A stretch of 58,463 nt of DNA from an uncultured Ignavibacteriales bacterium (GTDB lineage Bacteria; Zixibacteria; MSB-5A5; GN15; FEB-12). Below, in pieces: positions 6,001 through 15,000 of the stretch. The stretch spans positions 126,001 through 184,463 of the forward strand of contig CAYXJN010000009.1 in NCBI GenBank assembly GCA_964464605.1, read 5' to 3'. The position numbers are program-made. The number at the start of each line of letters is the position of its first letter. The first letter of the stretch is position 1.

Positions 6001-9000
6001 AGATAGATTTTAAAAGGAAATTCCGACCGAAAAGCGCTGGGCTGAGGCCAGTCTGCCGAAATCCTGCCAGGCATAATCTAAGGTCAGCTTTGAGCTTTCC
6101 CCAAACGGCAGGGATAAACCACCGCCAAGCGTAAGTCCTTCTTCGGCATAATTGATCTTCTGGCCGGCACGCAGGAAAAAGCGCTCAGAATAGCCATATT
6201 GCATTCCCAAAGAACCCTGTTGTTCGTTGTCGTTCGGATGCTTGAACTCACCCGCGAACGTCACTAAAGACTTAGGGCCAAATTGGACATCGTAGGCAAG
6301 TCCCATTCTGAACAATAATGGCAAGTCATAGGGCGTTGCTTTTAATTGGGCGGTAACTCCGGGGTTGTTGCCTTCCCCGTCACGGTCATCATAATTCACA
6401 TCCAAATCTGAACCGCCGAACGTCATATCACTGCCGACATTGCTCATACTCATACCGACCCGAAGCGAACGAAAACCGGTATACAATAAAGTACCGAAAT
6501 CAAGCGCTACGCCATTGGCGGTTGCGTTATGGATTTTTTCACCCAAAAACTTAATCGAACCACCGAACGAAAACTGCGTGGTCAACTGACGCGCGTAACT
6601 GGCGCCGATAGCATATGATGTTGCGGTATAAAACTCACCGGTACCATCCGGGTTGTCGAAAGTCGTGATTTCGATATCATCCATCGAAAGCATCGTCGCC
6701 GAAACACCGATCACACCGACTCCTTCGAATGCTTTGGCTGCACCGAAGTAATTGAGTTTAACATCCAAAAGCCAATCGACCGAGGTAAACGCAAAATCAG
6801 TTCCTTCAACTTCCGCCAACCCAGCCGGATTCCAGAACATGGAATAGGCATCATTGGCAATCGCTACTGATGCTTCCCCGAGTGCCTGATATTTGGCACC
6901 CACGCCGATTTTCAAAAACTGTGCCCCAGCCATACCGACTTTGGAAGTCTCAGCAGCTGAAACAAACTGGACTGCGCCAATTAGGAGAAAGAATGCTATA
7001 CGCGTTTTCATATTCATTCTCCCTACTTAATGATGGCGAAGCGCCCGGTTTGGGTTCCATAGGGGGAGTCAACATGATAGAAGTATGTGCCCGATGCTAT
7101 CTGTTGACGGTTTTCCGATTGTAAGTTCCAGCGAGCTTCCCCTCCACCATTGTGCTGAATTGTACGCACCAAATCCCCGGTCAGCGTGTAAATACGAATT
7201 GTGCAGCGTTCCGGAACCGGCTGGAAAGTCAGCACGGTTTCTCCTTGAGCAGTTTCAACCATAGATGAGAAACTGACAAAGTACGGATTTGGAACGACTT
7301 TAATCTTTTTCAATGCCGCTTGTGCATCGGCAGCATCGACACCATCGACTTTGAAGGCGAAGTTATCACCCGGACCGTTTAACGGCGCACCGGCAACGGT
7401 GAACACATCGCCGACTTGCGGACCGTAGGTTGATTCATCGAACTGGAACATCCAGCTGTAGAAATACGGGAATGCATCTGCTGTGACATTGTTGGTGCCG
7501 TCATACGGATAATCGACAATGACCAACAGATCCGCTGCGCTCCAGACACCATCTTCATCAAATTCATAGAAAGCGAGTGATACGCGCTCGTTGGTGGAGA
7601 TATTCCAGCATTCAAACGGTATCCACATCGATTGATCAATAGTTGTAAACCCTTCACCAACCCATGCCGCCCAGGTCGAATCGCCGGTGTATCGTATTTC
7701 ATATTGGCTGCGGAACGGCGCGTCACCGAACACATCATTCGTGTCGCCGGTAAATACCGGAATCGCCGGACCATAAAAGTCGTACATTTCAAGCGTCGGA
7801 TTGCTGCCGCTGAATCCGGTCTGAACATAACTACGGGGGTAGCGATCACCGTTAGTGACAACAAGACGCATACCATCGGTCACCGGGAATAATCCCTCTT
7901 CTCCGCCCATTTGAGTTTGATCCCGCAGAATGGTATCACCGCTGGCAGCATTGACAATATGCCAGTAGGTTTCTTCCGGGGTATCTTGGAAGACGATTTG
8001 ATAATCTGTACCCTGCAGTGCGGTTTTATCGAATACTATCGGGATAACGGTACCGTCAGAAATACTATCCGGCGCACTTCCGGTGAATGTATGGACGACT
8101 GTCGATTCGGCCGGGAAATAACCGGAAGGGTTCTTCGTCGGGCGTGCTTCGATTACATTCGCTGTCTGCCCTGCGATACCGAATCCGTTTTGCAATTGAT
8201 CGATACCAAGTGTCGCATTACCGGTATCATATGCGACCAGGCAATACCAGTAATCGACAGAGTTGCTTAAGTTCGAATCGATAAAGGTATGCTGAATCGG
8301 GTCACCGGGAGCGTTAACGCTCTTTTCGAAAATCGGCGTATAGGCGACATCGAGACATTCATTGCTATTTTCATCATCAACCGGTCCCCAGGTTCTTCCG
8401 CCGTTATCGCTGCGATATAAGCGATAACCGCCGAAATCCATCTCACCGGTAAGCGGATCGACACTGACTTCCGCCGTATCATTCCATGACAAAAAGATTT
8501 TCTTGTCACCGCCTCGGGCGATAAGAGTCGGTGTGGTGGGTGGTTCCGGACCAACATAATTTTGATCATACAATTCCTGCGCAAGATCGGCATTGGCACG
8601 GAAATCCGCTTCATCTTTTCCGGCTACGAATGCATACACCACCCGCACCGTTTTACCGGCGGTCAAATCAATGCCGCGAACACACTGGATATAGAACTGA
8701 TCGGTCGGCGGCAATGAAGAGTCATATTGTGCGCTGTTGATATAGTCGAATCGTCCCGGATCATCCTGCGGTAAAAAACCCCAGTCGCCGGTACGGAAAG
8801 AAGTCATTCCGATACCATCTGGCGTTTCCAAAAGCTTTGTGCCGAAATAACCGCCGATAACTCCCCAACCCGGATCTTTCACCGGATCATAAATCCAAGC
8901 AAGATTTTCAATAGAATCCGAACCGACGATATCTCCTAAACGTCCGTTTTCACCGGAACCATCCGGACCACCCGCGTCGATATCGATGTACAATCCGAAC

Positions 9001-12000: not shown

Positions 12001-15000
12001 GCATAACGCGAATACGGTCAGCCGTAAAGATCATCTTCGATTCAGTCATATCTTTTTGAATGGGAGCCAAAGTCGCGCTGACTACCTGTTCAGTGACTTC
12101 GACAGCGGTTTCTTTCAATTCAAGATCAACCGGCGTGGTCAAATCGGCCAGTACGCGCACTTCTTCTTTGGTTATTTTCTGAAATCCGACGTAAGAAATC
12201 GTGATTCGATATTTACCAACCGGGATGTTAATAATGAAGTATTCGCCGTCCTCGTCGGTTTTGGTACCAATCGGCGTTCCCTCAATCATAACGGTCGCCC
12301 CTACTAATGGTTCACCTGTGGCAACGTTCGTTACCAAGCCAGAGATTTTCCCCGTAGTAGATGCAGACAGGTTCGATGCCGCACAGACGACCAACGTGAA
12401 ACCGATCAGTATGCGAAAGAAAGCTTGTTTCCGCACCAAAGTGCGTCCTCCCATTAAGAATCCGCCGAGCGTTTTAAGCTTCGGCTACCGTAAACTGTCA
12501 ATGGTTCGGGTTGTCAGCGCTACGGTGTCCTTTGGCCTCATTATCGAACTGTTCAGAAATTTCTTAACCGATCGGCACACTTTTTTTGAAGGAGTCAAAA
12601 AATGAATGGAAAAGAAAAAGCGAGTCTAATCGACTGGCGGGTAAAAAATTGCGGCTAAATACCGACATAGATTACGAAAACGGTTCGGGATAAGTCTGTC
12701 TGCGGCGAAGAACGTACGGTCACAAACCTAATGAAAGGGTTGTAACTATTCTTACGCCGGTTATTCGATGCATGGGCGTGTTGGCTCTTTTGTGCCACCT
12801 TCTCGCCAGCGGTGAGGTGCGCGCAGACAGAGAGGTGCATATTGCAACCCTAACCAGTGACACGCTGACTTCCACGACTCGAACGCTGCAAGGAGCGCGG
12901 AATGTCATTCTCCAGCAGAATGACAAAGTGGTGTTTCATCACTTTACCTGCGGATCCGCCGCCCATAGCAGTTCTGTGGTTGATTCTATCACCAGAATAA
13001 AACCAACACTTATTCTGACAGTAGGAACAGTCGCAACTGACATGGCGAAGAAGGAATTTCCGAATACGCCCATTATCTTCTCTTCCGTTATCCACCCCGA
13101 ACTATCCGGCTTCGTCGAGAGTAATAAAGTCCCAAACACGAATATGACCGGCGCATCGCTTGATATTCCGATCGACATTCAGTTTAAGTATTTTAAGAAA
13201 ATTGTCCCGAACATTAAGCGAATCGGTGTGCTCTACACGCCAGAAACCGAGCACCTGATCAATCAGGCTAAGGAAGCAGCTCGCGCGGAGGGGATCGACC
13301 TTGTTCCCGTAACCGTTCATGAAAACAAGGACCTCCCCTCTGCACTTGATTCTGTTTCCGCTCATGTCGATGGACTCTGGTCAGTACCTGACCCGCAACT
13401 GTTTACCCCGCAGTCTACCCGTTACATCTTATTGAACACGATTCGGCGCTCAATTCCGTTCATGGGTTTCTCCCGCAATGTTGTTGAATCAGGTGCGCTT
13501 TTTGCCCTCGATTTCGACTACAAAGCGGTAGGCATGCAGGCCGGCCGGATTGTCAATCAGGTTTTGGGAGGACAAAATCCCGGTACAATTGAGGTTTCTT
13601 CAGTCGACGTTATCTGGTTTCACTACAACGAAAAAACAGCGAAGTTGATAAACGTTGCCATACCGGATGAGTTAGTTGCCGTTGCCAAGGAGGTGTACAG
13701 ATGACACTTCCACTGGCATTGCGTCGCTTTTCATTGCGGGCAAAATTCATTCTGCCTATCTCGATCGTGGTATGCGTGAGCGTATTCGCTATCAGTACCT
13801 ACTTGATTCGTCAGCAAGCTGATGGCTTCCATCGTGAATTTGAAGAAAACGGCCAGACCATGTCCCGCCTTGTCGCCCGTCAGGCGGAAAGCGGCGTATT
13901 GTTTGAAGACCGTGACGATCTGAAATCGATTCTCGGGCAGTTAACGGTCATCGACGATGTCAGCTACGCCGTAATCACCGACAACGAAGGGAAAGTGCTT
14001 GCGGAAATCGGTACCTGGCCGACCACAAACCATGAAACGCCGAAACCGGTTACTATTGCTACCGATCGCAGCAGCATGCAGTACATCCAATTCGAGAAGG
14101 AGCATTCCTGCATTCAATTTGTCAGTCCGATTGTGACTATTCAGGAAACATTGAATCCGGAAAATCTCGGTACGACCGGACGAATCGATTCCAGCATGAC
14201 CAGCGGTTCTTCCGAGCAGCAAATCGGAACATTGCGTGTGCTCTGGTCGCTTGAACAAGTGGAAAAAGCGATCGAGAAATCGACTACAACGGCAATCGTC
14301 CTCACGCTCTTTATTCTCCTTTTGACCATTGTGGTATTGGCTCTTGTTGTTCGTGCCGTTATTGAACCGGTTAAACGGCTTGTGGAAGCAACCGACCAAG
14401 TTGCCTGCGGCAACTACACGCAGAAAGTGGAAGTTGTCCACGAAGATGAAATCGGCCAGCTCGCACTTACGTTCAACGAAATGATTGAATCGCTGCGGCA
14501 ATCGCGCGAGGCAATCGAAGAATACAACCGTACCCTCGAACAGCGTATTCAGGAGCGCACCCGCGCTTTGGAAGAAGCACAGGCGCAGTTGACCCAGTCG
14601 GAAAAGATGAACGCTATCGGCCAGCTCTCTGCCGGCGTTGCCCATGAACTCAATAATCCTCTCGGTGGTATTCTTGGCTATGCCCAATTCGCGCTTGAAA
14701 AGCTGCGTAAAGGGAATGTCATCAATCCGGATTCACCTGATTCTAAGAACTTTGTCCGCTACTTGAGTGATATCGAAACTCAGGCACGACGCTGCAAGAC
14801 AATTGTGCAAAACTTGCTGCGTTTCGCCCGCACCTCGCATACCGCTGAGTTCGAGGCAGTTGATATCAACAAGGCGATCGAAGAAACAAGAACATTCGTT
14901 GAACATCAGTTGAATATGCACCAGATACATTTGGTGACTGATTTGGGCGAAAATCTGCCGATTATCTACGGCAATATCTCGCAGTTACAACAGGTGTTTA

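Follow-up and report, generated by a model that had tools for sequence, protein, structure and literature searches.

A conserved trio of TonB-dependent transporter, protein with a T9SS-type tail and PorV-like barrel as a candidate SusC/SusD-like nutrient-capture unit

In a 58,463-nt stretch of an uncultured Zixibacteria genome (contig CAYXJN010000009.1; hereafter the window), we found that a TonB-dependent transporter, a large secreted protein and a PorV-like barrel are encoded side by side in an arrangement whose conservation goes well beyond chance. We infer that the three proteins probably make up one outer-membrane nutrient-capture unit like SusC/SusD, whose surface partner would be anchored by its dedicated PorV-like barrel. 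An earlier note on this DNA had proposed such a unit, with a T9SS-attached protein replacing SusD, and the proposal is now supported by the gene order in distant relatives, by the import and catabolism genes near these relatives, by the absence of SusD matches in the Zixibacteria genomes searched and by the predicted binding of the protein's tail to the barrel.

The trio spans positions 6010-12454 of the window on the minus strand, where the ORFs of the three-gene build were found as the earlier note had placed them. The transporter (P0001, 896 aa, 9764..12454, from its ORF and Pfam matches) is followed by the middle protein, MID (P0002, 909 aa, 7023..9752), secreted and all-beta according to its ORF and AlphaFold model, and by the 14-strand-type barrel (P0003, 335 aa, 6010..7017), recognised from its ORF and its match to NF033709. 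The genes are indeed closely packed; the intergenic gaps measure 11 and 5 nt, not the 10-20 nt previously given.

Pfam agrees with the description of P0001 as a TonB-dependent-receptor-like protein with a carboxypeptidase-regulatory-like domain and a plug. After a signal peptide come CarboxypepD_reg at residues 37-125 (E 2.4e-18), the plug at 134-232 (2.1e-9) and the TonB_dep_Rec barrel at 327-834 (2.2e-27), and the chain ends in F; P0001 scored as a TonB-dependent transporter with both PF07715 (38.3 bits, cut-off 23.9) and PF00593 (97.5 bits, cut-off 27). A TonB-box-like stretch lies before the plug, at about 118-128. Its conserved V-V-V-x-A-like part at 124-128 (V126 in 22 of 23 sequences, A128 in 21 of 23) is a possible TonB box, and TonB_C is found above cut-off at six places in the genome. 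P0001 falls outside the SusC/RagA family (TIGR04056), which it matches with 69.1 bits against a cut-off of 368.25 and over the N-terminal 130 positions only.

MID carries a Sec signal. In an AlphaFold model of moderate confidence (pLDDT 72.1), its N-domain (about 58-402) is followed by an Fn3-like domain and other beta-sandwich domains, and a linker predicted with low confidence (805-837) leads to a beta-sandwich tail (838-909). The N-domain is, on this model, a beta-supersandwich as in GH15, GH94, GH116 and GH65: VIA-align matched it to 1ug9 (Z 16.9, rmsd 3.1 over 220 aa), 1lf6 (Z 16.4), 5nz7 (Z 15.6) and the N-domains of GH94, GH116 and GH15 (Z 14-16), so that a fold previously matched for the paralogue g01713 alone is now matched for MID itself. 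MID would not be a GH15, GH94 or GH116 enzyme, as the model has no (alpha/alpha)6 domain, being all-beta with short helices only past residue 402, and there is no GH Pfam match. Searches for other Pfam or PDB sequence matches returned none beyond weak T9SS ones at the C-terminus. These consist of CHU_C (21.5 bits, cut-off 27), TIGR04183 (20.4 bits, cut-off 23) and a resemblance to the PorZ C-terminus (E 3.8e-6). Hence the T9SS sorting domain claimed for MID stands as a T9SS-type tail, without reaching the curated cut-offs that define T9SS type A (TIGR04183/PF18962), and it is the sub-threshold matches together with a predicted PorV contact that suggest the label "T9SS-sorted"; some orthologues are named "T9SS type A sorting domain-containing protein" in their source records. 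Among the tails of 34 MID orthologues, 31 matched the PorZ C-terminus (best E 5e-9) and 27 the generic cargo model TIGR04183 at E<=0.01 (best 2.5e-5). By sequence comparison, MID's tail is most like those of PorZ and PorU.

The third gene was correctly assigned to the PorV/PorQ family, since P0003 scores 200.6 bits with NF033709 (cut-off 90), and its profile also matches F. johnsoniae PorV (6h3i, E 7e-29). It lies under the equivalog cut-offs of PorV proper (NF033710, 67.7 vs 250 bits), PorQ proper (NF033711, 77.4 vs 220) and PorV2 (NF052325, 71.6 vs 325). When P0003 was modelled with MID 806-909, the predicted complex reached an ipSAE of 0.92 (best of three controls 0.00). Of 157 solved complexes 116 attain this mark, as do 2 of 215 mismatched pairs; at least 97% of contacts agreed between runs, with partner pLDDT of at least 81. 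MID's tail is therefore predicted to bind the PorV-like barrel. Structures of F. johnsoniae PorV have been solved (6h3i, 8gl6-8gln); if any of them holds a PorV-tail contact, the ipSAE may stem from likeness to these structures and not from a signal of this pair's own.

Regarding the export of MID, SprA (2042 aa; 447.6 bits, or 563.6 with neighbours in frame, cut-off 200) and PorU (711.7 bits, cut-off 420) are present in the genome and provide a route, and about 26 ORFs bear a T9SS tail. By known models the route is incomplete, as searches of the genome with TIGR03525, TIGR03513, TIGR03517, PF12081 and TIGR03523, families that no control genome holds, gave no match to GldK, GldL, GldM or GldN. 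The likelier PorV proper is another gene, which adjoins PorU on contig C4. SusD_RagB (PF07980) matched in none of 61 Zixibacteria genomes, while a control genome gave a match, and Pfam found no SusD in the gene adjoining the transporter.

The trio occurs in two or three copies in this genome. The second locus reported at C3 65139-72112 was recovered, with proteins of 921, 1053 and 338 aa from the same three families, and the match between the two middle proteins, earlier given as 24% over 640 aa (E 5e-22), now extends at 24% over 703 columns (E 1e-36). Six further paralogues resemble MID in the tail and in a short block at the N-terminal end. Every sampled genome of nine Zixibacteria families (113 genomes, summed per family) holds a strong full-length MID orthologue, and 133 of 151 genomes give a match at E<=1e-20. 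The order transporter-MID-PorV is kept in 55 of the 59 Zixibacteria loci with room on both sides, which bears out its conservation across families. As for the loci scored as breaking the order, tblastn located the PorV gene in three (L061, L088 and L091), where ORF picking had skipped it, and L060 has its middle gene broken into two ORFs.

Outside the phylum, we read metagenome loci that were the best 80 of at least 601 tblastn matches to one query and not a random sample. The same three-gene order is retained in 43 of 48 loci whose relatives are 25-35% identical, and is broken in five; two long MID relatives (L176, L194) have neither a transporter nor a barrel gene beside them. The trio is thus no peculiarity of Zixibacteria. 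Distant relatives with a name belong to KSB1, Calditrichota and Eisenbacteria, and one is the cultured Rhodocaloribacter litoris. Distant trios have as neighbours either LacI, GH94, GH144-like (PF10091) and sugar ABC genes or genes for peptidases and for an oligopeptide ABC importer. By manual reading, 20 of the 48 loci have CAZyme or CBM genes (GH94, PF10091, GH2, GH3, CBM9/20/30) near the trio and 10 have LacI-type or PBP-HTH regulators; peptidase or amino-acid genes (Opp-type ABC, M14, M16, M20, gamma-glutamyltranspeptidase) lie there in seven, and several loci have inner-membrane sugar ABC importers. Such substrate-specific import and catabolism genes are what a SusC/SusD-like capture unit predicts.

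By sequence, transporter and barrel each belong to trio-specific subfamilies. An HMM built from the metagenome trio transporters alone gave P0001 697 bits and the three PorV-adjacent TBDRs of its own genome 594-697, against at most 102 for the other true TBDRs. The corresponding barrel HMM gave P0003 377 bits and the three trio PorV genes of the genome 269-377, against at most 172 for the seven paralogues without an adjoining TBDR, and the trio barrels form a clade in a quick tree (SH-aLRT 93).

In Zixibacteria the trio has neighbours of its own. The gene lying 98 nt downstream (P0004, 519 aa, 4352..5911, minus strand) comes after the trio in 51 of the 62 loci, in keeping with the neighbour previously noted (g02292). 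It gave no Pfam or NCBIfam match; its model (pLDDT 89.8) resembles M9 collagenase peptidase domains over residues 121-383 (8jt1, Z 13.4, rmsd 4.0 over 216 aa), and all 18 sequences compared share H233, H235, E236, H239 and E259. With its HExxH motif, downstream Glu and predicted thermolysin-like fold, P0004 is a candidate secreted zinc metallopeptidase of the gluzincin type. On the other side, a divergent intergenic region (12455..12771, from the sequence read), in which a promoter scan did no better than chance (13 sites vs 13.0 expected), separates the operon from the plus-strand sensor genes of a conserved two-component system. These are headed by a periplasmic-binding-protein-like gene (ABC_sub_bind, PF04392, E 5.4e-38; 12772..13704), which almost every Zixibacteria locus extending that far has next to the transporter gene. 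According to Pfam, it is followed by a sensor histidine kinase (CHASE8, HAMP, HisKA, HATPase_c; 13701..15374), two single-domain response regulators (15381-15767 and 15760-16128, together 15381..16128; Response_reg E 3.7e-24 and 6.2e-23) and a hybrid histidine kinase (Response_reg, HisKA, HATPase_c; 16125..17807), all conserved beside the operon in Zixibacteria. In L104, L106 and L108 the sensor kinase gene lies upstream of the transporter gene and runs in the same direction. The Zixibacteria locus has no adjoining inner-membrane importer.

Considering these results, we propose that MID would be exported to the cell surface without removal of its C-terminal T9SS-type domain. Its tail would remain on the dedicated barrel, bound to the loops and the N-terminal segment, like PorZ on PorQ and PorU on PorV, making the barrel MID's membrane anchor beside the transporter; this step draws on the predicted complex and on the known tails that MID's most resembles. 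Going by what its family does, the transporter would import an oligomeric substrate, which the beta-supersandwich and beta-sandwich domains of MID may bind or present to it, a job done in Bacteroidota by SusD and other surface lipoproteins. The unit would be generic, with paralogous and orthologous trios serving different substrates, since the neighbouring genes differ. In the Zixibacteria version, peptides freed outside the cell would be the likely cargo and the imported product would be sensed in the periplasm, because the neighbours are a putative secreted gluzincin-type peptidase and a sensor cluster headed by a periplasmic-binding-protein-like gene. This is the weakest step of the model.

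It is conceivable, if rather unlikely, that the three genes are co-regulated without forming a joint machine, MID being a T9SS cargo like others, whether a surface binding protein or an unrecognised enzyme, with its own PorV-like shuttle or anchor, and the transporter working alone as most TonB-dependent transporters do outside Bacteroidota. Surface proteins do cluster at these loci, other T9SS-tail proteins standing beside the trio in 29 of the 48 metagenome loci, and other PorV-family genes of the genome adjoin tail-bearing proteins without a TBDR, for example at the C2 locus. However, a strict order with gaps of 5-20 nt that persists down to 25% identity and across several phyla, together with trio-specific subfamilies of transporter and barrel, is the pattern of co-evolving partners and not of loose co-regulation.

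We regard as improbable that the transporter works outwards, exporting or inserting MID with TonB energy in place of the undetected PorKLMN motor while the PorV-like barrel receives the tail. Oar of Myxococcus is reportedly a TonB-type barrel with an export role; the CarboxypepD_reg, plug and barrel build is compatible with this, some trio transporters match the Oar-type PF25183, and GldK/L/M/N were not found (nor matched in the searches' controls) in a genome with so many tail-bearing ORFs. Yet SprA and PorU are present, and the regulators, the periplasmic and cytoplasmic glycan enzymes and the inner-membrane importers near trios fit uptake. Least probable, in our opinion, is that the barrel shares only its fold with PorV and is a FadL-type channel, in series or parallel with the transporter, for a hydrophobic or amphipathic product. 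P0003 and its paralogues have weak Toluene_X/FadL matches, and the PorV family is homologous to FadL according to one article (PMC12578637), but the FadL match of P0003 is 18 bits, under cut-off, against 200.6 for PorV/PorQ, the predicted tail binding stands at 0.92 against 0.00, and the neighbours imply sugars and peptides, not lipids.

Returning to the capture unit, we tentatively raise a broader possibility, which we hold with less than even confidence: the trio may be a stable three-protein outer-membrane machine across many FCB-group phyla, in which T9SS tail-PorV recognition now serves to anchor a TonB-dependent transporter's lid or capture protein permanently to the membrane; this machine would be a lipoprotein-free counterpart, and possibly forerunner, of the SusC/SusD "pedal bin". 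If so, PUL-like foraging for glycans and peptides outside Bacteroidota would use a so far undescribed architecture. SusC/SusD explain large-nutrient uptake in Bacteroidota, and the trio offers a testable candidate for the SusD-less Zixibacteria, KSB1, Calditrichota, Eisenbacteria and others, as well as a marker for PUL-like loci in metagenomes of those phyla. It would also give the PorV family a second role outside secretion. Since one carrier, R. litoris, is cultured, a bench test is possible.

We found no published description of the trio, and several known systems resemble it in part. As in SusC/SusD (RagA/RagB) and utilisomes, the gene for a transporter that has a CarboxypepD_reg-like domain at its N-terminus directly precedes that of a large surface partner, and the distant loci resemble Bacteroidota PULs in that a regulator and an inner-membrane importer accompany genes for surface proteins and for enzymes acting on glycans or peptides. 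On the other hand, the partner in the trio is neither SusD-like nor a lipoprotein, being all-beta, 900-1100 aa long and provided with a T9SS-type tail, and the trio has an obligatory third gene for the PorV-like barrel. Oar-type TonB-dependent barrels have the same order of CarboxypepD_reg, plug and barrel, and several trio transporters match PF25183, whereas P0001 matches PF00593 instead and gives no sign of export.

In the T9SS attachment complex, PorU and PorZ retain their CTDs and remain bound to PorV and PorQ, as stated in a review (PMC10202324). A surface protein held by its retained C-terminal domain on a PorV/PorQ-family barrel is likewise what is proposed for MID, although here the genes of the pair adjoin that of a nutrient transporter, a genome carries several copies, and no sortase or LPS-delivery role is implied. 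In BamG-BamH-BamA, as described in PMC12578637, a FadL/PorV-type 14-strand barrel packs on a larger barrel and grips a surface protein by its extracellular loops. There the large barrel is another one, the function is protein insertion, the held protein is a lipoprotein, and BamG matches P0003 at E 5.8e-4 (19 bits, cut-off 250). Nonetheless, it provides a precedent for the arrangement that we propose for the trio, namely a FadL/PorV-type barrel that adjoins a larger one and holds a surface protein.

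We found that the three genes at window positions 6010-12454 form a compact unit on the minus strand. The transporter P0001 (896 aa; 9764-12454), a TonB-dependent receptor (TBDR), combines CarboxypepD_reg, Plug and TonB_dep_Rec barrel domains and has F as its last residue. It is followed by P0002, here called MID (909 aa; 7023-9752), which carries a Sec signal, and by P0003 (335 aa; 6010-7017), a PorV/PorQ-family protein that matches NF033709 with 200.6 bits (cut-off 90) and scores far under the PorV, PorQ and PorV2 equivalog cut-offs. The next ORF on this strand, P0004 (519 aa; 4352-5911), has a signal peptide and no family match; the four consecutive ORFs are spaced by 11, 5 and 98 nt. 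The family matches of MID are confined to weak, sub-threshold T9SS-type ones at its C-terminus, namely CHU_C (21.5 bits, cut-off 27), TIGR04183 (20.4, cut-off 23) and the PorZ C-terminus (E 3.8e-6). The ORFs, the domain matches and the two short gaps within the trio bear out the build proposed in the earlier note, a TBDR, a T9SS-tail protein and a PorV-family barrel. Scans for sigma-70 promoters (13 sites, 13.0 expected) and terminators (11 found, 8.8 expected) did not rise above chance. The RmuC and pyridine-nucleotide-disulphide oxidoreductase genes 3' of the Zixibacteria operon look unrelated.

MID is matched at E<=1e-20 in 133 of 151 Zixibacteria genomes. Full-length orthologues (40-63% identity) occur in all sampled genomes of nine families, whose per-family counts sum to 113 genomes, and the remaining ten families gave weak matches or none. 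Across 80 Zixibacteria loci, tblastn placed the transporter before MID and a PorV-like gene after it wherever the contig extends. A separate count based on ORF calls and HMMs found the transporter upstream in 64/65 loci, the barrel adjacent in 68/72 and both partners in 55 of the 59 loci with enough contig, so the earlier claim that the gene order is kept across Zixibacteria families holds. Three misses (L061, L088 and L091) are ORF-picking faults, the PorV gene being detected there by tblastn; at locus L060 MID is split into two ORFs, and L105 gave a partial PorV match only. A P0004-like gene follows the trio in 51/62 loci and is missing from more distant families. Also kept beside the operon across Zixibacteria is a divergent sensor cluster, whose five genes in the window (12772-17807) encode an ABC_sub_bind protein, a CHASE8/HAMP kinase, two receiver-only response regulators and a hybrid kinase; at three loci (L104, L106 and L108) it is co-directional with the transporter and upstream of it. 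The cluster has no DNA-binding output domain.

Relatives of MID extend well beyond this phylum. A HMMER search of 1.84 billion representatives returned 3856 clusters at E<=1e-3, 224 of them at E<=1e-30, many with proteins of 900-1200 aa and 30-36% identity; a search of the ESM Atlas returned unnamed clusters only, from Zixibacteria, Ignavibacteriota and WOR-3. With an alignment of eight such 900-1200-aa relatives as query, we scanned metagenomes and read the best 80 of at least 601 confirmed stretches. Among these best 80, the MID ORF lay on the expected strand in 78, the transporter upstream in 57/60, the barrel adjacent in 59/64 and both in 43/48. Of the exceptions, L131 and L192 lack the barrel, L171 has an ORF inserted, and at L136 no upstream transporter ORF was called. 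Two very long MID relatives, at L176 (7001-10153; a 2024-aa ORF) and L194 (a 1501-aa ORF), have neither transporter nor barrel beside them; after the former come two PF10091 genes and an SBP gene. When the MID of a single glycan-type locus was searched against a word index, it yielded relatives of 63-72% identity, all labelled 'hypothetical protein' by their sources and assigned there to candidate division KSB1, Calditrichaeota, Candidatus Eisenbacteria, Zhuqueibacterota, a Bacteroidetes MAG and the cultured Rhodocaloribacter litoris (GQ464_017340). For the MIDs of GH94-type loci (P0281-P0400, relatives of L144:5881-9126), this identity across phyla is unusually high for a surface protein, and it points either to whole loci having moved laterally or to strong constraint.

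The neighbours of the trio were counted by manual reading of the annotations of 174 proteins from 48 metagenome loci. At least one CAZyme or CBM gene was present in 20/48, including GH94 phosphorylase, PF10091 'glycoamylase' (which we take to be the GH144 beta-1,2-glucanase family), GH2, GH3, six-hairpin GH and CBM9/20/30. Regulators of the LacI or PBP-HTH type occurred in 10 loci and RpiR in 2, and several loci contained SBP_bac_1/BPD_transp_1 sugar ABC importers or an SSF symporter. Seven of the 48 carried genes linked to peptides or amino acids: an Opp-type ABC system (L150), M20/M42 with M14 (L185), M16 (L193), M20 (L148), and gamma-glutamyltranspeptidase, AstE/AspA-like and DctM-like genes (L182, L167 and L174). 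An additional Por_Secre_tail or FlgD_ig protein lay beside the trio in 29/48. Directly 3' of the barrel, four glycan-type loci encode a SurA-like PPIase with Rotamase domains (L186:11224-13098, L157:10724-12610, L180:8196-10019 and L189:6148-7995), which may be a dedicated periplasmic chaperone. The layout of these metagenome loci is that of a polysaccharide or peptide utilisation locus in which the trio replaces susC/susD.

The source genome (2.8 Mb, 18 contigs, completeness rating 100%) contains 10 PorV-family genes above cut-off and 10 plug-domain genes, and TBDR and PorV genes are neighbours at three loci. Besides the window locus, these are the second trio that had been reported on contig C3 (65139-72112), which we confirmed with proteins of 921, 1053 and 338 aa, and C9 26300-32968 (L111:6300-12968; outside the window), where a 1114-aa Oar-type TBDR and a 342-aa PorV-like protein precede a 756-aa protein. 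The two MID paralogues align with 24% identity over 703 columns (E 1e-36). The 756-aa protein matches no family, contains a lipobox-like LFSGC and was ruled out as a MID relative (hhalign probability 0.5%); this locus may be a variant of the unit with a lipoprotein as partner. HMMs built from 50 metagenome trio transporters and 52 barrels, Zixibacteria-like loci excluded, were scored on all ORFs of at least 200 aa in this genome. The three PorV-adjacent TBDRs reached 697, 686 and 594 bits, against at most 102 for other true TBDRs, and the three TBDR-adjacent barrels 377, 296 and 269 bits, against at most 172 for the other seven. Two intermediate transporter matches (128-240 bits), ORFs at C3 238895-242600, are CarboxypepD_reg-repeat and VWA proteins and were ruled out as transporters. 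In a quick ML tree, 29 transporter-adjacent barrels formed one clade (SH-aLRT 93), with PorU-adjacent barrels and other paralogues outside. These score gaps and this clade indicate that transporter and barrel are dedicated subfamilies travelling with MID.

Turning to the T9SS and TonB parts, the genome encodes SprA (a 2042-aa frame) and PorU, about 26 ORFs with PorU-tail-like ends, and TonB_C above cut-off at 6 places. Models of GldK, GldL, GldM and GldN gave no match in it, a negative that falls short of proving absence, since no control genome contains these families; the motor and ring may have diverged beyond detection, or else the outer parts of the T9SS operate without them in this lineage. 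The window itself holds another T9SS-tail protein, a minus-strand ORF of at least 582 aa (56715-58463, running past the window end) whose C-terminus (about 56751-56981) matches a PorU-type tail with 49 bits. Other PorV-family genes have different surroundings. At C4:13089-19683 (outside the window; L113:4089-10683) the one adjoining PorU encodes 886 aa, and the family model matches at positions 3-42 and 42-325 with roughly 550 residues between, which indicates that the first strand of this PorV is followed by a very large insertion. Tandem genes (329 and 295 aa) lie directly 3' of a 502-aa FlgD_ig-tail protein at C6:24-3428 (L115), with no transporter nearby. At C1:360668-362247 (L112) an LptE-like gene has a PorV-family gene directly 3' of it, so the family may have a tie to the assembly of LPS rather than to secretion.

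The MID model, built with 34 orthologues, is all-beta and multi-domain (pLDDT 72.1, pTM 0.50). Residues ~58-402 resemble the beta-supersandwich N-domain of the GH15 glucodextranase 1ug9 (Z 16.9, rmsd 3.1 over 220 aa), as well as those of glucoamylase 1lf6 (Z 16.4), GH116 (Z 16) and GH94 phosphorylases (Z 14-15.6). The model has no (alpha/alpha)6 catalytic domain after the supersandwich; there follow an Fn3-like domain, high-confidence sandwiches (640-800) and, beyond a floppy linker (805-837), a C-terminal sandwich. A conserved acidic cluster at ~257-293 might bind a metal or be catalytic. PorZ (5m11) was among the Foldseek matches, and the best match of a sequence search against the PDB (E 0.04) covered the tail only.

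Of the tails of 34 orthologues, 31 matched the PorZ C-terminus (best E 5e-9), 27 matched TIGR04183 (best 2.5e-5) and 19 matched the PorU C-terminus. According to a review (PMC10202324), PorZ and PorU are the T9SS proteins with unprocessed tails that stay on PorQ and PorV, and cognate PorV-like barrels are suggested to protect such tails. When barrel residues 22-335 (31-row alignment) and MID 806-909 (34 rows) were modelled together, the predicted complex reached an ipSAE of 0.92, the best control 0.00; of 157 solved complexes, 116 attained this mark, as did 2 of 215 mismatched pairs. Runs shared at least 97% of contacts, with a partner pLDDT of at least 81. The predicted interface joins the conserved N-terminal segment 24-37 of the barrel (F34 invariant) and its loops to the most conserved tail motifs, 818-823, 853-862 and 879-909. 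F. johnsoniae PorV has seven solved entries (6h3i, 8gl6-8gln), and we assume that the 8gl series represents substrate-bound states, in which case the ipSAE may partly reflect likeness to those structures.

For P0004, the model (pLDDT 89.8, pTM 0.88) places residues 121-383 close to the M9 collagenase peptidase domain 8jt1 (Z 13.4, rmsd 4.0 over 216 aa), with weaker likeness to M30 and M1 enzymes. Residues H233, H235, E236, H239 and E259 are invariant in 18/18 aligned orthologues, and a sequence search against the PDB gave no match. Most probably, P0004 represents an undescribed family of gluzincin-type zinc peptidases and is either secreted or periplasmic.

Alongside the computed anatomy, co-inheritance, dedicated subfamilies, substrate-specific neighbourhoods, folds and predicted tail-barrel interface, we propose the following working. 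MID would be exported through SprA and would retain its tail, by which the barrel would anchor it next to the transporter; MID would then capture oligomers, to be imported by the transporter with TonB energy. In the Zixibacteria version, the peptidase neighbour P0004 points to peptides as the cargo, and the sensor cluster, with its ABC_sub_bind gene first, may report the imported product. Peptide cargo and its sensing are the least secure step of this proposal.

Other readings of the same genes deserve consideration. The three may be loosely co-regulated and form no joint machine; next to the gene order kept in distant relatives and the subfamilies that travel with MID, we regard this as unlikely, though it is the most serious of the alternatives. 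The transporter barrel might instead work outward, like Oar; set beside the sugar and peptide uptake genes around the metagenome trios, such a role seems improbable. Still less credible is that P0003 acts as a FadL-like channel: its family match is to PorV/PorQ, and it is predicted to bind the MID tail. We favor capture by a barrel-anchored MID followed by TonB-dependent import.

In the open literature, searched in full text including Rhodocaloribacter and Melioribacter and with subscription journals outside its coverage, we found no description of the trio, and when the text of a 2026 review on glycoside transporters of bacteria (PMC13543919) was searched by term, PorV, T9SS and type IX gave no match. 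SusD_RagB was detected in none of 61 Zixibacteria genomes (the source genome and 60 others), the positive control B. thetaiotaomicron giving a match. As for the barrel, the BamG-BamH-BamA assembly (PMC12578637) shows that a FadL/PorV-type barrel is able to keep a surface protein in place against a larger barrel, a precedent for a P0003-like barrel holding MID beside P0001. TonB-dependent capture systems with a surface partner are already known; what is new here is the nature of that partner, a PorV-like barrel as its predicted anchor, and the spread of the arrangement across phyla.
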